64,000 bases of DNA from Bacteroidales bacterium UBA1797 (GTDB lineage: Bacteria; Bacteroidota; Bacteroidia; Bacteroidales; VadinHA17). How positions within the stretch are numbered: the first letter of the stretch is position 1; the number at the start of each line of letters is the position of its first letter. This document shows, in pieces, positions 3,465-53,564 of the stretch. The position numbers and the translations under genes are program-made. The stretch lies in the NCBI GenBank assembly GCA_002319885.1, contig DCFT01000112.1:2820-66819 (forward strand), read 5' to 3'. The notes under the pieces were generated by a model. It did no database searches. It was given only the letters and a program-made list of their open reading frames with translations, and was not told the origin of the DNA.

Positions 3465-5105
3465 TTAATATCCGGGATTTTGATCATTCTGTGTAATGGC
3501 AGGATTTGAATCAATCTCAGACTGTGGAATAGGCCATAAATAATTTCTGGCCGGATCAAAACTAAACATATATTTCATGTAATAGGGCAACTTGGGCATG
3601 GCCTCCTCCCTGATAAATGCCTCAAGACGACGCCATCTGATAAGGTCGTTGATACGTACCTGCTCATTGCAAAGCTCAATTTTGCGTTCATGTTCAATGG
3701 CTTTTCTAAGTTGCTCCTGATTGGTAACCGGATAAATGTTATCCATTTCAGGCGAACCGTAATTTGGCATCATTACGTCAGGCCTGTTTCTTACCTGATT
3801 AAGATATTTAATGGCGTCAGGAATATTGCCAAGTTCATTTTCTATTTCGGCCATCATTAGCAAAACATCGGCCAGTCTGATCACCCTGGTATTGATTCCT
3901 GAATAATTACTTTCAGATTTTTGCTTGTAATAATTCTGGTATTTTTTCCAGCCATATTGAAACAATATTTCATTAAGAAGAACACCGTCCTTCCAATATC
4001 TGAGGGTATCGGTATATAAAACAGCTGTATCTTTTCCCTTGTTGTATAAATCACCAGTCTGATAAATACAATAACCCAATCTGGGGTCATTTTTAACGCC
4101 ATTGTCTGCTACTGTTTCAAATTCCTCTACGAGATCCCGGAAGGGATAAGCGTTATACCAGTTGAAACAACCATATTCAATTCCTCTTAAAGAACATTCG
4201 TTCAATCCGGTCCCATTATCATCAGATGACCAAAGATTGGCAGTACCCAATGCAGGGTTGAACTCAACTTCAAAAACAGATTCAGGACCATGTTCTGTTT
4301 CTTCTTCAAAATTATTGCTATACCTGGCCTCAAGTTCGTAGTTTTCATGATCATCAATAACCTTAAGAAAGGCATTTCTGGCTGCAAGAAAATCAGCCGG
4401 ATCTTTGGAATCATTGGCCTGAAACAGATGAGCCTTGCCTAAAAGGGCCCAGGCTGCTCCGGAGGTAGCCCTTCCTTTTTCTTCAAGGTTTTTCGGAAGG
4501 CATTTCGTTGCTGCAAAGGATAAGTCAGTTTCAATCTGAGCCCAGACAAGTGCTTTCGGACTTCGTGGCATGCCAGTATTACCTTCCGTATTCTCGACAA
4601 TCAATGGAATATCTCCAAACCTGGTGACAAGAAGAAAGTAATATAAAGCCCTTAAAAACCTTGCTTCACCAAGATACTTGTCTTTTTTAATCTTTGACAT
4701 CAATCTTTCAGGTATCTTGTTTATCGCTTCCTCATTATGAATGACAAAATTGGCTCTGTTAATTCCCGCATAACATCTTTTCCAATATTCAGCGATAAAA
4801 ATATTGTTGGCATCAAAAGTATATAGTAAAAATACATGATAAACAGGATCAGCGGTGTTTAATTGCTCGAAAGCCATAAAATCCATGCTATAATACAAAG
4901 TACGCTGATAAAGCCCGTCGGTTTGTAAGTTGGCATAAACAGCATTAACTGCTTGTTGAACCTCGGCTTCGGTTTTAAAGAAAGTACCGGGTGTCGGTTC
5001 GTTAGGATTTGTCAGTTCGAGTTTATCTACATTGCAGCTATTTAGATGTAAGAACAAAATAATTGATACATTAACAAGAAAGATTCTTTGCTGATACATA
5101 GCCAA
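3465..5105 (-). CDS. SusD/RagB-family outer-membrane nutrient-binding lipoprotein (second copy, no adjacent SusC)
   Basis: 546-aa ORF with lipobox LNSC. SusD-like motifs include YLGEARFLRALYYFLLVTRFGDIPL and a C-terminal IRWRRLE...LWPIPQSEID...QNPGY. It is a paralog of 8666-10297. Confidence 0.9.
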   Translation of the reverse strand: MAMYQQRIFLVNVSIILFLHLNSCNVDKLELTNPNEPTPGTFFKTEAEVQQAVNAVYANLQTDGLYQRTLYYSMDFMAFEQLNTADPVYHVFLLYTFDANNIFIAEYWKRCYAGINRANFVIHNEEAINKIPERLMSKIKKDKYLGEARFLRALYYFLLVTRFGDIPLIVENTEGNTGMPRSPKALVWAQIETDLSFAATKCLPKNLEEKGRATSGAAWALLGKAHLFQANDSKDPADFLAARNAFLKVIDDHENYELEARYSNNFEEETEHGPESVFEVEFNPALGTANLWSSDDNGTGLNECSLRGIEYGCFNWYNAYPFRDLVEEFETVADNGVKNDPRLGYCIYQTGDLYNKGKDTAVLYTDTLRYWKDGVLLNEILFQYGWKKYQNYYKQKSESNYSGINTRVIRLADVLLMMAEIENELGNIPDAIKYLNQVRNRPDVMMPNYGSPEMDNIYPVTNQEQLRKAIEHERKIELCNEQVRINDLIRWRRLEAFIREEAMPKLPYYMKYMFSFDPARNYLWPIPQSEIDSNPAITQNDQNPGY

Positions 5106-5196
5106 TTATTTTAGACCATATTAAAACTATTTTTATTTATCTGAATATTAGTATGTTATTTTTAATATATATGCAAACCGGAATTAGAAAAGCTGT

Positions 5197-8100
5197 TTAT
5201 TTGAATTTAAAGATCTGAAGTCTTTCATTATTGTTTCCGACTAAAACAGCTTTGTCTTTACCAGCATTATTCAGGTGAATTAATGATAATGCCCGAACTT
5301 CCCCGGGAACAAAAAATCCTGAAAGTCTTGAGGGAACAACTTCAAAACCTCCCTTACCATCACCTTTCAGAAACGCACCAACTCCCCCGTCATTTCTTGG
5401 TGTAACAGTTTCTACATCAAAGAGATTCCCGGCAGCTAAAATATCCAGATGCCCATCATTATCAAAATCATCAATAATAAAATCATTTATTGAAGATAAC
5501 TGCGCTTCATTTGGCAACCTGTGAATTTTAAACTTCCCATTCCCGATATTTTCAAAATAACAGCTGGCAAAGGTCTCAGCCTGAAGATGCAAAGATTCAT
5601 CTAATACTTTTTTTGTATAAATATCTGAGACGGTTGCTTCAGCAAAGCTCTTATAAGTAGGAAATTTCTTTGCTACCCAGGGATTCTGGTCGATAAAACT
5701 TTTTCTGCTTCTTAAAGGAAATTGTTTCCCATTTTGAAAATAGCTTAATACAATATCCGAATTCCCGTTATTGTTAAAATCTCCCGCATAAACATCAAAT
5801 GTTTTGTCGCTACTTGCCTTATATCTGGAATTTAAACCAAGATTGCCTGCTACCAGATCAATATCACCATCATTATCAAAATCAGCGCCATCAATGCTAA
5901 ACCACCATCCCTTTGTTCCTTCAATAGTAGTTTTTTCAAATTTCCCATGTTTGTTTTCAAATATGCAGACAGGCATCCATTCGCCTGCGATTACCAGATC
6001 CGTCCAATGATCATTATCAATATCACCGCAAAATGCAGAAGTAACCATACCTGTATTTAAAAGATCAGGTGCCACTTCTTTTGTAACATCTGCAAATTTT
6101 ACAACTCCATTAATGGTTCTGTTTTCCAGAATGTAGCTACTTGCAGGAAAAGGATATTTTCCGGGTACCTGCCTTCCTCCGATAAATAAATCCAGATCGC
6201 CATCGTTGTCAAAATCAATAGCTCTAACACATGATCCGTTAGACGTTATTGCAGGCAATGAATTTGGACTTTTGGAAAAATTACCTTTACCATCATTTAG
6301 ATAAAGACGGTCAGTATAGCTTTTTGAATCTTTCGGGAGATCATAACCTCCGCTTGCAACATATAAATCAAGATCTCCATCATTATCAGCATCAAAAAGC
6401 AAAGTTCCGGTAGCTTCAAACAGACTATCGTTCACCCAGGGCCCCTCCTTAATTCTGAAAGTTCCGTTTTTATTCTGGATATACATCCTACCCGGACTTT
6501 TAGATGCATTCCCAATATAAAAATCCTCAAGCTGATCGTTGTTAACATCACCTACAATAATGTCAGGTCCTTGATTTGACATCTTATGAGGTAGTAAAAC
6601 CTGATCTCTATAATCATTATGAATGTTCCCTTTATGAATAAATTCCAGTCCTGTTGAATCAGTTATTTCTTTAAAAATCTTTTGAATTTTCACCTTACGC
6701 TCAACAAGTGATATTGCATCAGAATGTTTTAGCGTCAGTTTTTGATTTGCTTTGATATTTTTCAAATTCTGGACCATTCCATCGGTCCATTTCACATAAA
6801 GTGAATCAATAGATTCATACTTATTCAGACCAAAGTATAGAATTGGTTCCACGGAAGACTCATATCCCCTTGATAAAGTGAGTTCTGCCATCTGCATTTT
6901 TCCTCCGGTCCAGATTGTTACAATTGAGCCGATTCCCATTTTATTTGAAGAAGTACCTTCAAATTCAACTTTAAGATAATTCCCTGACTTTTTTTCACTT
7001 GCATTGTTTTTATATATAGACGCCTCACCGTCTATATTATTAACAATAAGTTCCAGGTCGCCGTCGTTATCAAGATCAGCGTATGCCACCCCATTTGAAT
7101 AACCTTCGTCCTTTATACCCCATTCCTCATTGTATTTAGAAAAAGTAAGATCGCCATTGTTCTTATATATGTAATTTACCAGGGTTTTAAAAGGCATACC
7201 TTTCACTAGTTTTAACATTTCGGTTTTACTCAGCCCTTTTTTAGAATTTGAAGATTCTGCTATTTTATTAAAATAATCAAGATTATTTATGTCTCTGCGT
7301 ATACCACATGTTATGAATAAATCTTTCCAGCCGTCAAGGTCGTAATCTGCAAACAAAGCCGCCCAACTCCAGTCAGTTGAAGTAACACCCGCTATCCAGG
7401 CGGAATTGCTGAAAAAAGGTAAGCCATTCGCCATTATACCCCTGTTAAGCTGTAAAGTACTATATCTGTACTGATAATGTAACCCTTCCTTCACCATTTC
7501 CTCAAAATCCTGCGAACTCATTGTTGACATATTCTCTTTCGCTCTTTTATTATCTTCAGGTGCCATATCAATTTGCATAATGTCAAGTAATCCATCGTTA
7601 TTATAATCTGCAACATCGGCACCCATACCATAAAAAGAAGTCTGGCCCAGAACTTCGCCGGCTTTGTCAGAAAAAGTTCCATCGGCGTTGTTAAAGTAAA
7701 AATAATCGGGGCAGGTAAAATCGTTAGAAAGGTATAAGTCCTTATATCCGTCCTGGTTAAAGTCACTTACTGTTGCACTTAGTGTTAATCCAAATGATAA
7801 TAAACCACTCTCTCTGGTAACATCTGTAAAAGTACCATCACCATTGTTTCGATATAAATGACCAGAATCAATCCACTTTACATTTCTCATCATTTGTTTA
7901 TAAGAATAAGGAGTAGCTTTAAAATTTGTTATGGGATAATTTGCCACATACAAATCCAGGTCGCCATCGTTGTCATAATCGAAAAAAGTACTCTGGGTAC
8001 TCATTCCCGGATCGTTAATACCATATTTTTTAGCTTCTTCCCTGAAAACAGGAATACCATCTTTATTGATGCCCTGATTAACAAATAATAAATTTTCGTG

Positions 8101-17614: not shown

Positions 17615-18322
17615 ATGAATTGCATAATAGTTGATGATGATATATTAACTTGTAGAATCCTGGAGGAATATGTGATGAAATCCACTTCGCTTAACCTGAT
17701 AAGTATTTTCAGCGAACCGAAAGCAGCAAGAGATATGTTAACTAAACGACAGGATATTGATCTTGCCATTCTCAATATCCCGATGCCTTATCTGGATGAT
17801 TTTGAGTTTATTAGTAGCCTAGATTCTAAACCTAAAATAATAATAGTATCATCAACTGAGGAATTTGCACTGAAAGCGTTCGACTTCAACATTGTCGATT
17901 ACCTGTTAAAACCTGTCACATATGGACGTTTCTGCAAAGCCATTGACAAAACAATCAGGTACTTTTCACGTAAAGAGGGTACAAACAACGGCAGTGAAGA
18001 AATATTCATCAAAGAAGGAACAACACTGGTTAAGCTCAAACTCACAGATATTATATATATCGAATCTTTAGAAAATTATATTACACTTAATACCAGGAAC
18101 AAAAAATTTACTATTCATTTTACAATGAAAGCCATTGAGAACCAACTTCCATCACATATATTTGTAAGGGTACACAGATCTTTCATAATAAACAAGAATA
18201 TGATACTCGCTATAAATGAGAATACTCTGGATATTCAAACAGGAGATTCTGTTAAAAAAATTCCAGTCGGGAAATCATTCAGGAACTACCTTTTGAATTA
18301 CATTAATGTGATGGCGAGATAA
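17615..18322 (+). CDS. LytTR-family response regulator with atypical receiver (Asn at the phospho-acceptor position)
   Basis: 235-aa ORF. Receiver motifs are IIVDDD, IIIVSS and DYLLKP, but the expected ...LDIxMP is IDLAILNIPMP (N54, codon aat at 17774-17776). The LytTR domain reads FVRVHRSFIINKNMI. Confidence 0.85.
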   Translation: MNCIIVDDDILTCRILEEYVMKSTSLNLISIFSEPKAARDMLTKRQDIDLAILNIPMPYLDDFEFISSLDSKPKIIIVSSTEEFALKAFDFNIVDYLLKPVTYGRFCKAIDKTIRYFSRKEGTNNGSEEIFIKEGTTLVKLKLTDIIYIESLENYITLNTRNKKFTIHFTMKAIENQLPSHIFVRVHRSFIINKNMILAINENTLDIQTGDSVKKIPVGKSFRNYLLNYINVMAR

Positions 18323-18365
18323 TTGCATGAAATAGTCTTCTACTCACAAATTGCTACATAAAAAA

Positions 18366-18866
18366 TTATTCCTGCTCCTGTATTAAGTTCAATTTTTGTT
18401 CAGTCTCTATAAATACTAATCTGTCTTTAACAAGTTCACCCTTGTTATCTCTTCCGTAAAGCTTTATACAAATATTTGGTATGGCACCATAAAAAATATT
18501 AGTTATGGGAGAAAATGCGTCATTAATATCCTCAAATTCATTTATTTCATCATATTCCTCAATATTAAAATAGAGGTGCAAAATAACAATATAATCAGGT
18601 TTGTCAATCCTGACCAGGACATTAAGTATCTTTGCGAGCCATATTGATGATGCAGTATTGAAATATTCCAGATCGAACCTCAAATTGGTAGTTGGCCTTG
18701 CATTTAATATATACTCTGTAACCCAATTCATTACCGGCTCATATAATTTACCGGCATTTTCAGGAATTGATCTGCCTGACAAAATAAGCTCCCCTGTTAA
18801 ATGATCCAGATTTACTTCAGGCGTGTTAGGAGTCTGTTCAATTATTAATCTTTGAATTTTATTCAT
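18366..18866 (-). CDS. DUF1987 / SiaC-like regulatory protein
   Basis: 166-aa ORF. TPNTPEVNLDHLTGELILSGRSIPENAGKLYEPVMNWV...LRFDLEYFNTASSIWLAKIL matches my recollection of the DUF1987 pattern (tP.v.fd...G.l.i.G.S.PEn ... YFNTSS). Confidence 0.7.
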   Translation of the reverse strand: MNKIQRLIIEQTPNTPEVNLDHLTGELILSGRSIPENAGKLYEPVMNWVTEYILNARPTTNLRFDLEYFNTASSIWLAKILNVLVRIDKPDYIVILHLYFNIEEYDEINEFEDINDAFSPITNIFYGAIPNICIKLYGRDNKGELVKDRLVFIETEQKLNLIQEQE

Positions 18867-19296
18867 TTTACTTTATGATAGAAGTTTATTAAATATGCCA
18901 GACCAGTTTTAATTTTAGATTAATAATCAAATTTATTACATGTTTTTATAAGTTTAAAAATCCTCATCAATTACTTATGATCAATCATCAATAAAATCGT
19001 CTGTTCATCAATTTATTTCTCGATTTATCTCCAAGAAACGATTAATTTTTCTTTTTACCCGATTTTTTTGCCTCACTGATTTTGTAACAAATAATCTGGA
19101 AAACTCAAAATAATAAATCACTTTATAACCTGATGAACTCAAAAATCAAAGATCTTTATTCTGCTCTTACAAATTTTTCAATAATTATTATAGATAATTT
19201 ATAACCTTGTCGCAAATTGCGGTAAGTTTAATTTTTATCCTGTCTTCAAAACTCAGGGATTTTGGATACAAAGAAAAGTATAAGCTGCTAACAATC

Positions 19297-19806
19297 TTAT
19301 TGAAAACATTGCAGGGTTCTTATAAAATAGTCCTGTTTATCAATTACGAAATCATCATAACTGTTATTATAATAAACCCTGATTTTATTGATCGCATGGC
19401 GTTTCAGAAAATCAATACTTTCTTTTGTCATTTTTGAATAATCAATCAATTTTTCTCCTTCGTTTCTACAGATTATTTGTCCTGAGAGTGGTAGGGTAAT
19501 GAAATCATTACCCGACTTTAAAGATATTTTGCTTTCCTTCCCAAAACAACTCTTATAACCAGGTTTCAGGAGAATGAAAAGAGCCATTGAGGTATCTCGG
19601 TATGTAATATTCTGTTCAATCTTCACTTTTAAATTACCCGGTATACTGGATACATTCTCGTAATAAGCTGAACGAGTAACAAGATCATCACAAGGGTCAT
19701 TAGTTGTTTTTAAATTGCACTGTGCCTGAACTGAAAGAGAATACATAAAAATTAAAAGGAAAATGATTATTGATTTTATTTTAAAAAGCATACTTGCTAC
19801 TGACAT
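19297..19806 (-). CDS. Hypothetical secreted protein
   Basis: The ORF track gives 19297-19941. A signal peptide (MLFKIKSIIIFLLIFMYSLSVQAQC) begins only after internal Met46/Met51 (ATG at 19806 or 19791), so a shorter start is more plausible. I recognise no family. Confidence 0.45.
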   Translation of the reverse strand: MSVASMLFKIKSIIIFLLIFMYSLSVQAQCNLKTTNDPCDDLVTRSAYYENVSSIPGNLKVKIEQNITYRDTSMALFILLKPGYKSCFGKESKISLKSGNDFITLPLSGQIICRNEGEKLIDYSKMTKESIDFLKRHAINKIRVYYNNSYDDFVIDKQDYFIRTLQCFQ

Positions 19807-20450
19807 GTAATTAATAAAGTTAAGAATTCCATTTTTTGTTATGATTGTTTTAACTACCGTTTCAAATCTGACATACTTATAAGTTTTTAGAATCCCAGGC
19901 ATTCTAAATGCAAGCAATGGATGTCCTTCTATTGTTTTCATGAATTTTTGTAAGTTTTAATATGATAAAAGTAGTTTGGAGTAACAACTTTGTCAAGCCT
20001 CTGTCGCCCATTTTGTGGGGAACTAAACTTGTTTTCAAACTATTTGTCTTTCAAAACCGGAAGAATATTTACCAGTATAAGCCACTGATGTAACAAAGAG
20101 TATTCTTAGTCAAAATAGAGTACTAATTTATCAGCAATATGTCAGAGAATTTAAAATAACAGATTAGCTGCAATACATCTTTATGATTGTCTGACTATTA
20201 ACGAATCTGCCTGTAATTAATATAAGAATTTACGATTTTGACGAGTAATTTATTTGTAGGGATCAATTATATCAAAAAAGTTGAAAATTTGCCATTTAAA
20301 CTGGCTTTTATGCGGAAAGTTGATACAAAAAAGCAAATAGTAAAAGTTAAAAATTGTAGAAATTGAATCACATAATGCATTAATGCAGTATTTTCACCCA
20401 CTAAAATCTTAGAATAAGAAATTTAAACAACAAATCAGGAGGATAAACTT

Positions 20451-46874: not shown

Positions 46875-48140
46875 TTAGAAGGGGAATGGGCCACGTGGAC
46901 CATTATCAGTCTTTTTTGTTGTACCTGCAACTTCTTTATCACCCATAGAAGTAATTACCTCATCTCCTTCCTTTAGACCCGAGAGTACTTCAATACTTGT
47001 TCCATTATCAATTCCAATTTTTATGATTTGAGGCCGTAGTCCCAATTTCTCGTCCTTTATCCATACGGTTTTTGTTTTAGGATCACTGGGCATTGCTGTC
47101 ATAGCTGATGCCGTAGGCATACTACCAGGCATCCCTTTTGAACCTGAAGGACCAGCAGCAGGCATATTTGACATCGACCCGCTGACTTTCATTTTTTCAA
47201 ACATCTTCTTCATATAATCCTGATCGGGAGTAAACCTGACAGCCTTACCTGATAAGAGTAATGTATTTGTTTTCTCTTCTACATAGATTATAGCACTGGC
47301 TGTCATACCCGGCATAAGTTTTTTATCAGGATTCGGAGCATTCAGAATAACCACATAGGTAACAACGTTGTTGGTTGTAACCGGCTGTAACCTTACCTGT
47401 GCGACTGTACCTTCAAATTTCAGATCGGAATATGCATCAACGGTAAATTCAACCCGCTGGCCATCAACAATCTTTCCAATGTCAGCTTCATCAACACTAG
47501 TCTGGACTTCCATTTGAGTAAGGTCGTTAACGATGGTGAAAAGAGTTGGTGTACTGAAGCTTGCAGCTACTGTCTGGCCTTCTTCAACAGCCCTGTTTAG
47601 AACAACTCCGTCAATCGGAGAAGTTATTGTGGCATACGCCAGATTCACTTCTGCTCTGTCGAGTGCAGATTTAGCATTAGCCAGTGAAGCCTTTGAATTC
47701 TCAAAATTGTATAATGCCTGGTCATAATCAGTTTGTGAAATAAGCTGCTTATCGAAGAGGACCTTTAACCTGTTATACGTTGATTCTTCAAAATGAAGCT
47801 GTGATGTCGCCTGATCAACTGCTGACTGGCTCTGAGAAAGTTGTGTCCTGAGAGGTGTCTCATCAAGCTTTGCAAGAAGTTGTCCCTGCTTAACATGATC
47901 ATTAAAATCAACATAAATGTGCAGAATAATTCCTGATACCTGTGTGCCTACATTCACAGTTTTTATAGCCTGAATTGTACCTGTGGCAGTAACCGTATTG
48001 CTGATGTTACCCTTCTCAACTTTTACAGTATTGAAGTTAACAACTGCTTCCTTTTTTGAAAAGGGTTTCAGTGCAAGTATAGCAGCAATAGAAACTACAG
48101 CCACTCCTGCAATAATTATTAACGTTTTCTTTTTCATCAT
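46875..48140 (-). CDS. Efflux periplasmic adaptor (MacA/HlyD-family membrane fusion protein)
   Basis: 421-aa ORF with an N-terminal anchor, a lipoyl/hairpin pattern (GTIQAIKTVNVGTQVSGII...QGQLLAKLD...YATITSPIDGVV) and a beta-barrel region. Confidence 0.9.
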   Translation of the reverse strand: MMKKKTLIIIAGVAVVSIAAILALKPFSKKEAVVNFNTVKVEKGNISNTVTATGTIQAIKTVNVGTQVSGIILHIYVDFNDHVKQGQLLAKLDETPLRTQLSQSQSAVDQATSQLHFEESTYNRLKVLFDKQLISQTDYDQALYNFENSKASLANAKSALDRAEVNLAYATITSPIDGVVLNRAVEEGQTVAASFSTPTLFTIVNDLTQMEVQTSVDEADIGKIVDGQRVEFTVDAYSDLKFEGTVAQVRLQPVTTNNVVTYVVILNAPNPDKKLMPGMTASAIIYVEEKTNTLLLSGKAVRFTPDQDYMKKMFEKMKVSGSMSNMPAAGPSGSKGMPGSMPTASAMTAMPSDPKTKTVWIKDEKLGLRPQIIKIGIDNGTSIEVLSGLKEGDEVITSMGDKEVAGTTKKTDNGPRGPFPF

Positions 48141-49811: not shown

Positions 49812-50576
49812 ATGAAAAATATTTCCCGCCGCGATATGGTACAAATATCGGGACTGTCAGCTGTAGGTTCATTAATTGGAGTATCAGCATTTTCAAAAGC
49901 CTCAGGAAAAGACAAATCCTCAGGGAACAAGCTTAAAATTATTGTTATGGGTGCCCATCCTGATGACCCGGAAAGCGGATGCGGAGGAACAATGGCATTA
50001 TTTTCAGCAGCAGGGCATGAAGTTGTATCCGCTTATCTCACCCGTGGAGAAGCAGGTATTACCGGCAAATCATACGATGAAGCAGCCAGAATAAGAACTG
50101 AAGAAGCTTTGAAAGCATGTAAAATTTTAAATGCCAGGGCAGAGTTTCTCGGACAGATCGATGGAAGTACTGAAATAACAAAAGAACGTTATGCTGAGAT
50201 AAATACTTTCTTTGAACGTGAAAATCCCGATATAGTTTTTACTCACTGGCCCGTAGATAGCCACAGGGATCACAGGATCTGCTCTATTTTAGCATATGAC
50301 GCCTGGCTTAATCTGGGGAAGAAATATGATTTATATTACTTTGAGGTTGATTCGGGAATTCAGACACAAAATTTTTTACCCTCAACCTATGTAAATATCG
50401 GTCCGGTAATAACAAAAAAGGGTTCAGCCTGTATGGCACATGCCAGCCAGGACCCTGAAGACTTTTATTTAAATATCCATAAAAAAATGGAAAAATTCAG
50501 GGGCCTGGAATATAATTGCGAATTCGCTGAGGCTTTTGTCAGACATAATCAAAATCCGCAGACACTGATCGGCTAA
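49812..50576 (+). CDS. PIG-L/LmbE-family deacetylase with Tat-like signal
   Basis: 254-aa ORF. The N-terminus is RRDMVQISGLSAVGSLIG. The family motif is IIVMGAHPDDPESGCGGTMA, followed by ...HWPVDSHRDH. Confidence 0.8.
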   Translation: MKNISRRDMVQISGLSAVGSLIGVSAFSKASGKDKSSGNKLKIIVMGAHPDDPESGCGGTMALFSAAGHEVVSAYLTRGEAGITGKSYDEAARIRTEEALKACKILNARAEFLGQIDGSTEITKERYAEINTFFERENPDIVFTHWPVDSHRDHRICSILAYDAWLNLGKKYDLYYFEVDSGIQTQNFLPSTYVNIGPVITKKGSACMAHASQDPEDFYLNIHKKMEKFRGLEYNCEFAEAFVRHNQNPQTLIG

Positions 50577-50587
50577 TGCAAAAAGGA

Positions 50588-51526
50588 TTATCTTACCGTT
50601 GTTTTAATCATTAACAAATTTGCTTCAAGCCCATCAAGGTAAATAAGGGCCCATGAAAGGGGATTCAGGGAGAAATTCATCTGTGATCCTGGCTCTCCTC
50701 CAAAACCGTCTTCCCTGTAATCAAAAATTAAAGGCGCATCCTTGGCAAGACTTTCATAGCCAGAACTTTTCCCTAATTCCAGAATAAGATTTTTTAGAGA
50801 GGTCTGCAGCTCATTTCCAGGAAATGGTCCCTCAGGATTCAAAATTGCATCTGCAGCCAATCCTCTTGCCTCAGGACGCCACAAATTTCCAGGATTACTA
50901 TTCCATTGTTCTCTGGAGAGACCTTCCTGTTTTAATATCTTATCCTGATATTCATTCACGATATTTAATACTTCATCAATTTTCAGATTTACTGTCGATT
51001 GCTGATGCTTTTCAGGAAACTGTATCAATGCTTCTTCCTGCCTTTTATAGTCTCGTGATAAATTATAGCTGTCATCAATAACCTCCCTGGAAACATTCAA
51101 TGCGAGCATACATGAAAAAACGGAATTGAGAGCCAGGAGCATGAGAACAAATACTGTATTGTAGATATTAAAATTCTTGTTTTTCGATGTAACAACCAAA
51201 AAGACTGGAAGAAAAACAATATATGGAAATGGAAGTGCAATCAGCAGTGCGAGGCCCGCAAAAGGCCAATGCTGTATTTTAAAAAGCATTCCGGTGAAAA
51301 CAACAAAACAGGTAATATATGTTACAATATAAAGTAGCCTGTTCTGATTATTTCCTTCAGCTTTATAACTATTTATCAACGAAGCAGGAAGGAATATCAG
51401 AACGAGTATCAAAGTTCCGACAGCGATCAAAATTTGTCCCATTGGCCAATGCTCCACTTTAAGTATTAATCCGGTGGAAATGATCATAGCCGAAATTACC
51501 CCGAGAATATATAGCTTTTGTTTCAT
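50588..51526 (-). CDS. Membrane protein: two GldL/PorL-like 'K(V/I)xHWP' TM hairpins + GldM-like TM anchor and periplasmic domain
   Basis: 312-aa ORF. The hairpins are ILKVEHWPMGQ and LFKIQHWPFAG. The third TM, ...LLALNSVFSCMLALNVSREVI, resembles the GldM/PorM N-terminal anchor (LALNVSKEVL-like, from memory). A soluble C-terminal domain of about 165 aa follows. Confidence 0.5.
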   Translation of the reverse strand: MKQKLYILGVISAMIISTGLILKVEHWPMGQILIAVGTLILVLIFLPASLINSYKAEGNNQNRLLYIVTYITCFVVFTGMLFKIQHWPFAGLALLIALPFPYIVFLPVFLVVTSKNKNFNIYNTVFVLMLLALNSVFSCMLALNVSREVIDDSYNLSRDYKRQEEALIQFPEKHQQSTVNLKIDEVLNIVNEYQDKILKQEGLSREQWNSNPGNLWRPEARGLAADAILNPEGPFPGNELQTSLKNLILELGKSSGYESLAKDAPLIFDYREDGFGGEPGSQMNFSLNPLSWALIYLDGLEANLLMIKTTVR

Positions 51527-51631
51527 ATTAATATATTTTTGATTTTAAAGAATTATGCATCCAACAATCTGATGCTTTAAACAATCGAACATCAGGTTTG
51601 TAAAAGCGTTGGAGTTCATAATCTTATGTAA

Positions 51632-53071
51632 TTAGTTGTTATGATTTGCAATTGTATTTAATACATATGACTCAACAGTAAGAAGTCCGTTTTTCATAAT
51701 TTCAAGAGTGTGAAGGCCAGCCATTAAAGATATTTCACCTTTGTAGGGGTTTCCTGAAGGTAGAAATATATCTGTATCAAGCATTTTTTTATATTTCAGC
51801 AAATCTTCTCCAGGAATTATGCTGGCTAAATAGCTTTCGTATTCTGCTATTGAAGAATTAAGTCCATTACGGGTAGTGCAGCCAGGGGTAAGAAATGCCC
51901 TTGCAGGGCCGGGATCGAAAGGTTTGGAAAGTTCGGAATACATTATTTCCTGACCGGTATCCGTCTGACTTATCTGGCGGGCACTTACTGCGGGCTTGCC
52001 AGGTTGTCCTTCCGATTCCTGAACCATCTTCTTCTGGATATTGCTTAGAATTGTAAGAATTTCGGTAGTTTTTGAATGCAGCCGTTCTATCTCATTGTAA
52101 TGTAATGAGTCTTTAAATCTTGTGATCTCAGAACTGTTATGCCTGTACAGGTAATTATATAATGCCTTTTGCTGGTCATTATATGGATAGTAATATGCCT
52201 GGTATGAATGCTGCAGGCTCAGGGTTAACATGGCTCCCGGGACAACAATTAACAAGTAACCAATGACCATAAAAATGAACTTTGGATTAACATAATTTTC
52301 CTCCTTCCAGGTAAGCCTGGTATATATCGGGAATGCAATAAAGCATAAAAGTATTATCCCAATAATTATAAATATGGTTGCTAGCGGCCAGTGTTGTAAC
52401 TTAAACAGCATGCCTGCAAAAAAAAGTGCAGTTCCGAGTCCTCCTAGCCAGTAAACCTGTCGCTTTGACTTGTTTTGCTGATCGGACGATCTGTTCTGGA
52501 CCAGTGCCGGAATAAAAAACAGAATACCAAATAATGCAGCAAGGGTTAGAAGTGCTCCTGCAAAAGGCCAGTGCTGAACTTTAAAGAGGGTCCCGAAAAT
52601 AAACAGCATCCCGGCAGCAAAAGCTGATGAAACCAGGAAAAGTCTTTTCCTGTTATGAGTCTCTTTCCAAAGGACACTAAGGGCTGAAGGCAGAAAAATA
52701 AAAGCAAGAATTAAAGCCCCAAGAGTCATCAGTACCCCTGCGAGAGGCCAGTGCTGAATTTTGAACAATGCTGCAAAGCCAAACATGACAGTGCCTGCAA
52801 CGCCTGAAATTTTCATTGTGTTTTTCATATATCGGTATTTTGTGTCAACTGCATAAAGCGTTTCTTTCTGGATCTCTTTAAGCCGGCGTGACCCCATTTT
52901 TTGTCTGACATTCCTGTAGGCCTCAGAAAAACTCAGACCATTCTGCATCTCGTTCTCCACGTCACAACATACATGATCAATGAGATCCTCCAGCAAATGG
53001 GAAAATGATATCTCCTCTCTGCTAATGTCCCTGCTTATCTGATCAATATGTTGCAGACTAAGTTCAGGCAT
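51632..53071 (-). CDS. Membrane protein: PadR-partner-like cytoplasmic N-domain + three GldL/PorL-like 'LFKxQHWP' TM hairpins + periplasmic domain
   Basis: 479-aa ORF. The helical N-terminus is LLEDLIDHVCCDVENEMQNGLSFSEAYRNV. Three repeats of about 60 aa are centred on LFKIQHWPLAG, LFKVQHWPFAG and LFKLQHWPLAT. A further TM segment and a C-terminal domain of about 190 aa follow. The start overlaps the PadR gene by 8 nt. Confidence 0.5.
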   Translation of the reverse strand: MPELSLQHIDQISRDISREEISFSHLLEDLIDHVCCDVENEMQNGLSFSEAYRNVRQKMGSRRLKEIQKETLYAVDTKYRYMKNTMKISGVAGTVMFGFAALFKIQHWPLAGVLMTLGALILAFIFLPSALSVLWKETHNRKRLFLVSSAFAAGMLFIFGTLFKVQHWPFAGALLTLAALFGILFFIPALVQNRSSDQQNKSKRQVYWLGGLGTALFFAGMLFKLQHWPLATIFIIIGIILLCFIAFPIYTRLTWKEENYVNPKFIFMVIGYLLIVVPGAMLTLSLQHSYQAYYYPYNDQQKALYNYLYRHNSSEITRFKDSLHYNEIERLHSKTTEILTILSNIQKKMVQESEGQPGKPAVSARQISQTDTGQEIMYSELSKPFDPGPARAFLTPGCTTRNGLNSSIAEYESYLASIIPGEDLLKYKKMLDTDIFLPSGNPYKGEISLMAGLHTLEIMKNGLLTVESYVLNTIANHNN

Positions 53072-53408
53072 GGCTTATTCCTGGTTTGGTATCGACAATC
53101 TGCTGAAGTGATTCGATGAACTCGCTGAGTTCTTTGATTCTTTCAGCGACAACGGTATGACCTTTAGGCGTAAGACTATAGTAGATCCTTATTCTGTTAT
53201 TAAAATTTTCTGAAGCAGTTACCAGGGACCCATCCTTTTCCAGTTTATGAAGGATTGGATAGAGTGCTCCATAGGTTAGTTTCATTTTCCCTGAGGTCAG
53301 TTCCTCCACTTTGCGTGTTATAGCATATCCGTGCATTGGCCCTTCCTCTTTTAACAGTTTCAGGACAATGGTTTTTAGAGATCCTTTTATCAGGTCTGAT
53401 GGTATCAT
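53064..53408 (-). CDS. PadR-family transcriptional regulator
   Basis: 114-aa ORF. GSLKTIVLKLLKEEGPMHGYAITRKVEELTSGKMKLTYGALYPILHKLEKDGSLV is a typical PadR winged helix. Confidence 0.85.
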   Translation of the reverse strand: MIPSDLIKGSLKTIVLKLLKEEGPMHGYAITRKVEELTSGKMKLTYGALYPILHKLEKDGSLVTASENFNNRIRIYYSLTPKGHTVVAERIKELSEFIESLQQIVDTKPGISHA

Positions 53409-53461
53409 AGTTTAATATATTAATAGTATAATAAAATTATATATAATTTGTTTATATATTG

Positions 53462-53469
53462 CAAATATA
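53462..53469 (-). promoter_or_regulatory. Candidate -7 promoter box TATATTTG for the PadR-led operon
   Basis: The minus strand reads TATATTTGCA, 54 nt upstream of the PadR ATG. It is the same 10-mer as at the trp and mutL upstream regions. Confidence 0.35.
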
Positions 53470-53564
53470 AAATATTATATTTTATAAAAACAAATTAATC
53501 AAAAAAAAATTTTGTTGCATGAAACGGTGATATTATCATAATTCCTCTTATTCACTGTATTATT

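Follow-up and report, generated by a model that had tools for sequence, protein, structure and literature searches.

What does a PadR-type transcription regulator have to do with two membrane proteins that seem to be put together from the parts of a motor? The question is raised by a three-gene locus, here called padR-A-B, which is read from the minus strand of the 64-kb stretch of DNA analysed (the window), taken from contig DCFT01000112.1 of Bacteroidales bacterium UBA1797. A preliminary description of this DNA had listed a PadR gene and two further open reading frames (ORFs), all of which are present on the minus strand with the coordinates given below. It had compared the two membrane proteins with GldL/PorL and GldM/PorM, the partners in the stator unit of gliding motility and type IX secretion, and had left the choice between a sensor and an ion-driven machine. 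The reading defended here is that padR-A-B would be an autonomous and autoregulated three-gene signalling module, in which a pseudo-motor derived from GldLM acts as the sensor that controls PadR. It is given a probability of roughly 0.55.

Hairpins and GldM-type parts of proteins A and B

The genes and the domains that they encode are distributed over the locus as follows.

53064-53408, minus strand: PadR-family winged-helix transcription regulator, 114 amino acids (PF03551, E = 7.4e-20)
51632-53071, minus strand: protein A, ORF of 479 amino acids
52832-53071, minus strand: A residues 1-80, cytoplasmic three-helix N-domain, HAAS-like (alignments A1 and A5; AlphaFold model)
52655-52828, minus strand: A hairpin 1, residues 82-139, loop K104-I-Q-H107-W-P (PF22827; K and H invariant; equivalent of GldL E49 is Leu in 35/37)
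52475-52648, minus strand: A hairpin 2, residues 142-199, loop K164-V-Q-H167-W-P (PF22827; E49 equivalent Gly, Ile or Leu)
52295-52468, minus strand: A hairpin 3, residues 202-259, loop K224-L-Q-H227-W-P (PF22827; E49 equivalent Leu, Ile or Phe)
51635-52288, minus strand: A residues 262-479, GldM-type transmembrane (TM) helix and periplasmic D1-like helical domain (A1 profile, Foldseek)
50588-51526, minus strand: protein B, ORF of 312 amino acids
51356-51526, minus strand: B hairpin 1, residues 1-57, loop K23-V-E-H26-W-P (PF22827; Leu41 opposite the motor Glu in the alignment with GldL 7SAU_C)
51176-51346, minus strand: B hairpin 2, residues 61-117, loop K83-I-Q-H86-W-P (PF22827; E49 equivalent Pro in 37/37)
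50591-51169, minus strand: B residues 120-312, GldM-type TM helix (ending ...MLALNVSREV) and D1-like domain (A4 profile, Foldseek)

The three LFKxQHWP hairpins reported for A (coding range 52316-52813, i.e. residues 87-252) and the two reported for B are real. The motif K-x-x-H-W-P recurs at residues 104, 164 and 224 of A and at residues 23 and 83 of B, with an exact period of 60 amino acids. These repeats are of the GldL/PorL type. The Pfam domain GldL_N (PF22827) matches A in three stretches (E = 9.4e-19) and B in two (E = 3.5e-10), both above the gathering cut-off of 24 bits, and profiles of the A and B families reach the GldL chain 7SAU_C (E = 2e-5 and 4.6e-6, respectively). Searches of PDB sequences with A and B as single sequences gave only weak GldL matches (E = 0.15-0.45), so that family profiles were needed. 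Against a cut-off of 68.3 bits, the full-length GldL model TIGR03513 yielded 41.9 and 22.9 bits, over profile positions 4-55 of 247 only; the match being confined to the N-terminal part, the cytoplasmic C-domain of GldL is absent from A and B. From hydropathy and AlphaFold secondary structure, A has seven predicted TM helices and B five, with a helical domain after the last one in each protein. The charges of the loops obey the positive-inside rule for a topology in which the N-domain of A is cytoplasmic, the motif loops are periplasmic and the C-domains lie outside. The family was followed through 80 loci fetched from species-representative genomes and annotated with hidden Markov models built from alignments (66 of them full-length). 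An origin of the repeats by chance or artefact was considered and is ruled out by the Pfam E-values and by conservation across these 80 loci.

The segment that follows the last hairpin resembles GldM. In A, the further TM segment and periplasmic domain that had been noticed correspond to the seventh TM helix and a helical domain of ∼190 residues; in B, MLALNVSREVI lies at residues 140-150, in the fifth TM helix, and precedes a helical domain of ∼170 residues. A profile of 31 diverse A-type proteins (A1) matches GldM 7SAU_A with E = 1.9e-21 (profile positions 272-475 on GldM 14-219) and PorM with E = 5.5e-19 (7SAT_A), 4e-14 (6EY0_A) and 3e-11 (6YS8_A). Altogether its matches to GldM/PorM chains, 7CMG_A among them, span 2e-21 to 3e-7 and cover both the TM helix and D1. 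Likewise, a profile of 22 diverse B-type proteins from the fetched loci (A4) matches GldM 7SAU_A with E = 5e-16 (B 131-310 on GldM 15-211) and PorM 7SAT_A with 4e-14. A narrow alignment of B (A3) missed GldM, which the diverse A4 recovered. The window proteins searched alone gave weak GldM signals (E = 0.011 and 0.024), with GldM_1st (PF12081) below the Pfam cut-off. Structural comparison points the same way: for the AlphaFold model of A (predicted local distance difference test score, pLDDT, 83.8), the five best PDB matches found by Foldseek are PorM D1, GldM and PorM, led by PorM D1 6EY0 (TM-score 0.63-0.70 on the target), GldM 7SAX_B and PorM 7CMG_B, and for the model of B the 14 best matches are all GldM/PorM chains. 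Profile and structure comparison thus both find a relationship to the motor proteins, GldL for the hairpins and GldM/PorM for the anchor, as had been proposed from their motifs.

Both proteins end where D1 ends. Residue 475 of 479 in A aligns to GldM 219 and position 310 of 313 in B to GldM 211, to be compared with residues 30-212 for PorM D1 (title of 6EY0). Since both stop at this boundary, the D2-D4 shaft of GldM is absent.

Conserved gene order, the N-domain of A and a candidate operator

With E ≤ 1e-3, the family comprises 1519 clusters at 50% identity, and all 80 fetched loci belong to Bacteroidota (Bacteroidales, Rikenellaceae, Flavobacteriales, Sphingobacteriaceae, Chitinophaga, Adhaeribacter and others). 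Linkage to PadR, on which the preliminary description had made its proposal depend, is conserved: in 63/66 full-length loci, the gene directly upstream of the one for the hairpin protein encodes PadR. In the window its product is a clear member of the winged-helix family (PF03551, 71 bits against a cut-off of 27), and the 8-nt overlap between the PadR stop and the A start (ATGCCTGA), already noticed, recurs in 39 related loci. An N-domain followed by three hairpins is encoded in 42 full-length loci, where PadR lies directly upstream in 40 and a B-type gene directly downstream in 41 (39 with exactly two hairpins; the other two, with one hairpin each, are frameshifted or masked). An N-domain followed by two hairpins is encoded in the other 24, with PadR directly upstream in 23 and a B-type gene downstream in none. 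The spacer between A and B, usually 2-30 nt among relatives, measures 105 nt in the window (51527-51631) and showed no terminator-like site. No neighbours other than PadR, A and B are conserved in the 80 loci; the efflux and TetR genes that flank the module in the window are common to close relatives only.

The partner-less two-hairpin subfamily (L045, L046 and L051-L080) is found in Flavobacteriales, Chitinophaga, Sphingobacteriaceae and Cytophagales. Its proteins, of ∼385-430 amino acids (e.g. L071:6001-7170, WP_200504278.1 of Adhaeribacter terrigena), carry an N-domain as in A, two hairpins and a GldM-like helix with D1, and have PadR alongside; as a homodimer, such a protein would give four hairpins to two helices. 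Another arrangement is seen in L047, where PadR is followed by a 291-aa protein (4150-5363) with an A-type N-domain, one TM segment, no hairpins and no Pfam match, an A/B pair without a PadR of its own lying just downstream. Finally, ∼460-aa proteins encoded divergently from PadR (L040:4161-5546, L053:4186-5556 and L061:4141-5517, all on the minus strand) join an N-terminal membrane region with GldL-type hairpins (e.g. FKIMHWPGAN) to a C-terminal SpoIIE/PP2C phosphatase (PF07228, E = 2e-21). This fusion is a second signalling architecture on the GldL-type hairpin, and the joining of such hairpins to a phosphatase supports a sensor role for A and B.

The N-domain of A is the part that is proposed to contact PadR. 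AlphaFold predicts three helices (residues 6-18, 24-43 and 48-75), the last nearly continuous with TM1. They carry a cluster S24-H25...D32-H33-x-C35-C36...E39 (residues 24-39, window positions 52955-53002), whose D32, H33 and E39 never vary and whose C35 and C36 are conserved to at least 90% (alignments A1 and A5); S24 and H25 are conserved in the three-hairpin class, and proteins of both classes, with three or two hairpins, have the two adjacent cysteines. As judged from this pattern, the Cys/His cluster could be a metal-binding or redox-sensitive site. The segment had been assigned to the kind of cytoplasmic domain that accompanies PadR genes. The model shows three helices, there are weak but recurrent matches to NF038403, and no Pfam model of the DUF1700 type is matched. 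NF038403 is the NCBIfam 'permease prefix' domain of PadR-linked FtsX-type permeases; its domain 1 is matched by 13/29 members, with a best E-value of 9e-5, and all matches fall below the cut-off. Among PDB sequences no solved relative and nothing significant was found for the N-domain. Ravi et al. (mSystems 2024; PMC11237479) describe such N-terminal helical domains, named HAAS, that obligately partner stand-alone PadR regulators; the cluster of A does not figure in the published description.

Upstream of PadR, two elements were located by footprinting, i.e. by alignment of 16 regions upstream of PadR.

53439-53459, strand not assigned: candidate operator for PadR, with the inverted repeat ATATATAA-N5-TTATATAT, immediately downstream of the -7 box
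53462-53494, minus strand: putative Bacteroidota-type promoter, with -33 TTTG (53491-53494) and -7 TAnnTTTG (TATATTTG, 53462-53469) 21 nt apart

The -33/-7 consensus is what we take to be the Bacteroidota type. The 16 regions share a conserved block of ∼75 nt, which contains the -7 box and then the palindrome, and are unalignable further upstream. With at most two mismatches, the palindrome occurs once in the window, for 0.19 matches expected by chance. It is found upstream of PadR in 36/42 three-hairpin and 14/30 two-hairpin loci, with 2 matches in the other 822,854 nt. In loci of the Flavobacteriales type it takes a symmetric variant, ATACATAA-N5-TTATGTAT, in which the two half-sites have changed in a compensatory manner. 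That PadR regulates its own operon at this candidate operator is a well-supported inference. A parallel exists in Listeria, where the PadR-type LltR autorepresses its own operon >100-fold, an operon that includes a DUF1700 membrane protein (PMC6624303). A cruder scan for the best inverted repeat upstream of PadR had returned no consistent site, and was replaced by the footprinting.

The number and setting of operator copies vary. Two or three tandem copies lie upstream of PadR in several loci, spaced by ∼15 nt in L040, L043, L046, L048, L051, L057 and L064 and by 25-30 nt in L028, L030, L067 and L074. The window has one copy and an extra AT-rich insertion of ∼24 nt between operator and start codon.

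Motor residues, the 5:2 count and rival explanations

GldLM is a GldL5GldM2 heteroheptamer, with ten GldL helices around two GldM helices. In the Flavobacterium motor, mutagenesis has shown the importance of Y13, K27, H30 and E49 in GldL and of R9 and Y17 in GldM. The equivalents of these residues were compared in 37 A/B ortholog pairs. Those of GldL K27 and H30, at the periplasmic interface between GldL and GldM, are invariant or nearly so in all five hairpins. Those of GldL E49 are L, G, L, L and P, and acidic residues reach at most 20% in every TM column; those of GldL Y13 are G, A, G, G and T. GldM R9 is mostly replaced by Phe (in A by F or Y, with Phe in 27/37; in B, Phe in 15, Ala in 7 and Gly in 7), and GldM Y17 by I, F or L in A and by N, L or I in B; under the one-residue-shifted alignment of HMMER, the latter position reads L, F or, in 6/37, Y. 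Between the last hairpin and the central helix, measured from a conserved Pro to the helix start, there are 18 residues in 36/37 A and 17 in 37/37 B. The motor has thus retained its scaffold and interface and lost its engine, and it is very unlikely that A and B rotate by means of protons.

An assembly of A and B cannot be a rotary motor, given the covalent linkers between ring and axle, the loss of the proton-coupling residues and the lack of a D2-D4 shaft. This bears directly on the explanation, left open by the preliminary description, that A and B are a working though divergent ion-driven machine, which does mechanical work or transport at the inner membrane or in the periplasm and has PadR merely as its regulator. 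The clear homology to a proton-driven 5:2 motor and a summed stoichiometry like that of the motor speak for such a machine, as do the Lys and His of the loops, which are protonatable and functionally important in GldL. Yet the membrane acid is replaced in all five hairpins, the other coupling residues (GldM Arg9 and Tyr17, GldL Tyr13) are lost, neither the cytoplasmic domain of GldL nor the output shaft of GldM is present, and continuous rotation is topologically impossible with ring and axle held in one polypeptide by short linkers of fixed length. The absence of proton-coupling residues and the covalent tethering make an ion-driven machine most improbable; of the two functional suggestions made earlier, it is the sensor controlling PadR that is favoured.

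Added together, A and B have 3 + 2 hairpins and 1 + 1 GldM-type helices, the count of GldL5GldM2. Neither this sum nor the partner-less two-hairpin subfamily figured in the preliminary description. The hairpins have individual identities: the nearest neighbour of a hairpin from another locus occupies the identical position (A1, A2, A3, B1 or B2) in 136/140 cases, so the five are distinct orthologous units. A position-specific signature is seen in the second TM helix of B hairpin 2, where P99 is nearly invariant, P101 invariant and residue 102 Y or F. Although the orthologs share only 25-30% identity, their TM block has virtually no indels, and the hairpin period is 37 residues in 34-36/37. Position-specific hairpins, an indel-free TM block and kept interface residues fit a fixed asymmetric assembly, and a 5:2 assembly of A with B, suggested by counts, linkage and homology, is put at a little under even odds. 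The idea that hairpins sum to five as a rule for the whole superfamily was rejected in view of the partner-less two-hairpin class and a four-hairpin protein, P0318, and is kept for the triad subfamily only.

How might such a module work? Most likely, PadR would bind the palindrome, which overlaps its own promoter, and so repress padR-A-B. A and B would form a heterodimer, with five hairpins around two central helices and the D1 domains paired in the periplasm. A stimulus acting on the periplasmic Lys/His collar, on the D1 pair or on the membrane would shift the helices of the bundle, a shift that could pass via TM1 into the cytoplasmic N-domain of A, which would then bind or free PadR. A more specific form of this scheme is offered tentatively, the odds being against it: A and B would be a covalently hard-wired 5:2 complex, a rotary motor frozen into a sensor, in which all seven positions, five in the ring and two in the axle, have become distinct, specialised segments of polypeptide. 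A twist or tilt of limited angle of the GldM-like pair within its ring of hairpins, set off at the Lys/His collar or at the paired D1 domains (e.g. by pH, envelope strain or a ligand), might then be read in the cytoplasm by the domain with the Cys/His cluster, which would hold or release PadR.

Several observations weigh against a sensory module of this design. The Foldseek E-values are weak (0.02-0.3), though the probabilities are ∼1.0, and the model of B is of moderate confidence (pLDDT 71). The N-domain gave no match to Pfam models of the HAAS/DUF1700 type and is missing the GxP motif of HAAS, Gly60 being conserved without the Pro. The 5:2 packing rests on counts, linkage and homology. One locus, L048, is a genuine exception, in which a three-hairpin protein lacks a partner, and the 24 loci of the two-hairpin subfamily combine two hairpins with a single GldM-like helix, also partner-less. 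P0318 itself (L081:98-1165) has an N-domain, four hairpins and an extra TM helix without D1, and no hairpin partner occurs within its 3.9-kb metagenomic contig.

The last of these points lead to the view that the hairpins are generic membrane-sensing repeats with a copy number of 2, 3 or 4, which form no 5:2 bundle; A and B would pair via D1 or act separately, and would still signal to PadR through the N-domain of A. The partner-less two-hairpin and four-hairpin relatives and the fusion of hairpins to a PP2C phosphatase suit this view, as does the fact that the ring is itself a deduction. What makes it rather doubtful is the strict coupling of three-hairpin proteins to a two-hairpin partner (41/42 versus 0/24 for the two-hairpin class), the specific identities of the five positions in a block free of indels, and the retention of the residues by which the ring of the motor contacts its axle. 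Less probable still, A and B could be regulators or decoys of the genuine type IX secretion or gliding motor, inserting into GldL5GldM2 or docking on the GldKN ring, with PadR setting their expression only. The kept equivalents of K27 and H30 at the GldL-GldM interface, the kept D1, which dimerises in GldM, and a family confined to Bacteroidota, the phylum that possesses type IX secretion, are what such a role would call for. However, no gldK/gldL/gldM/gldN cluster adjoins the module in the 80 loci or the window, A and B look self-sufficient because they supply both types of partner in a motor-like proportion, and an N-domain of the PadR-partner type speaks for A as a protein that communicates with PadR, beyond being under its control. 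A role on the genuine motor is thus unlikely, and control of PadR by a sensor derived from GldLM remains the preferred account.

Related systems, significance and other features of the window

The padR-A-B module combines two known kinds of system, the signalling dyad of PadR with a membrane partner and the family of 5:2 motors. With GldL5GldM2/PorL5PorM2 (6YS8, 7SAT, 7SAU, 7SAX and 7SAZ) it shares a hairpin with a periplasmic F-K-x-x-H-W loop (K27 and H30 in GldL), an N-in single TM helix ending in LALN(V/I)SK(E/D) and followed by a helical D1, a restriction to Bacteroidota, and the sum of five hairpins and two helices. It differs in that the hairpins are concatenated (three in A, two in B) and form one polypeptide with the GldM-like part, in the loss of GldL Glu49 and Tyr13 and of GldM Arg9 and Tyr17, in the missing GldL C-domain and GldM D2-D4, in its location outside a gldKLMN cluster, and in the addition of a PadR-partner N-domain with obligatory linkage to PadR. 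ExbBD-TonB with the TonB-dependent transducers and ZorAB of the Zorya anti-phage system are likewise 5:2 inner-membrane complexes with a conformational output that is read as a signal. ExbBD and ZorAB consist of separate subunits, keep the acidic residue for ion coupling and, as understood, rotate; in A and B, by contrast, the subunits are fused and the coupling residues gone. A Pfam search of the window proteins detected no relationship to the MotA/ExbB family.

HAAS-PadR dyads, proposed as an alternative to two-component systems (PMC11237479), resemble padR-A-B on the side of the regulator. These dyads, of which LltR-Lmo0600 of Listeria is an example (PMC6624303), have a small stand-alone PadR immediately upstream and translationally coupled, a short three-helix cytoplasmic N-terminus with the signature (D/E)-L-x-D-H...E that precedes a multi-TM sensor, and an operon that is probably autoregulated. 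In contrast to them, the N-domain of A is not significant against DUF1700, DUF1129 and DUF1048, lacks GxP and carries a conserved DH-x-CC cluster; the TM module of A is derived from GldL/GldM; and the three-hairpin class has B as an obligatory second subunit. The fusions of HAAS to 'uncharacterized 6TM, 4TM and 2TM domains' listed by these authors (PMC11237479) may include the padR-A-B family.

The preliminary description considered a concatenated, PadR-linked GldL/GldM family to be undescribed. Full-text searches gave nothing relevant, i.e. no paper linking GldL or GldM to PadR or describing GldL- or GldM-like paralogues; the repeat itself belongs to the GldL_N domain family. In public records, the proteins appear as 'hypothetical protein' in RefSeq and metagenome sources and otherwise under automatic domain names (Pfam GldL_N); UniRef calls the two-hairpin protein of Adhaeribacter 'GldM N-terminal domain-containing protein'. 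If the proposed reading is correct, the stator unit of gliding and type IX secretion has been put to a second use, as a scaffold for signalling that is widespread in Bacteroidota, and an identified type of sensor is added to the poorly understood systems made of PadR and a membrane partner. With its five ring and two axle positions fixed in two chains, the complex could give structural work a naturally trapped state for the study of asymmetric 5:2 interfaces, which are hard to approach in freely rotating homo-oligomers. Should the frozen form of the motor also prove true, it would be the first instance of a 5:2 stator unit turned into a device for transmembrane signalling that does not rotate, and a natural 'locked' model of one rotational state of GldLM. 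The candidate operator, the regulator, the conserved Lys and His of the loops and the conserved cytoplasmic Cys-Cys/His cluster would provide handles on whichever envelope signal these common environmental and gut-associated bacteria monitor.

Some features elsewhere in the window deserve mention. Convergent with B, positions 49812-50576 (plus strand) encode a PIG-L/LmbE-type deacetylase (PF02585, E = 5e-28; BshB1-like below the cut-off) with an apparent twin-arginine signal peptide (SRRDMVQISGLSAVGSLIGVSAFS), unusual in a mostly cytoplasmic family; this gene is not kept beside padR-A-B in other loci. The HlyD/MacA-like membrane-fusion protein of the flanking efflux operon (46875-48140, minus strand) contains an insert rich in Met, Ser, Pro and Gly (...SGSMSNMPAAGPSGSKGMPGSMPTASAMTAMPSDPK...), reminiscent of Met-rich metal-binding loops. 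The region of lowest GC content in the window (17615-19941; 0.296 at 18001-20000) encodes, as assigned by eye, a LytTR-type response regulator (17615-18322, plus strand) and a 166-aa protein of the DUF1987/SiaC type (18366-18866, minus strand), as well as a hypothetical protein of 214 amino acids.

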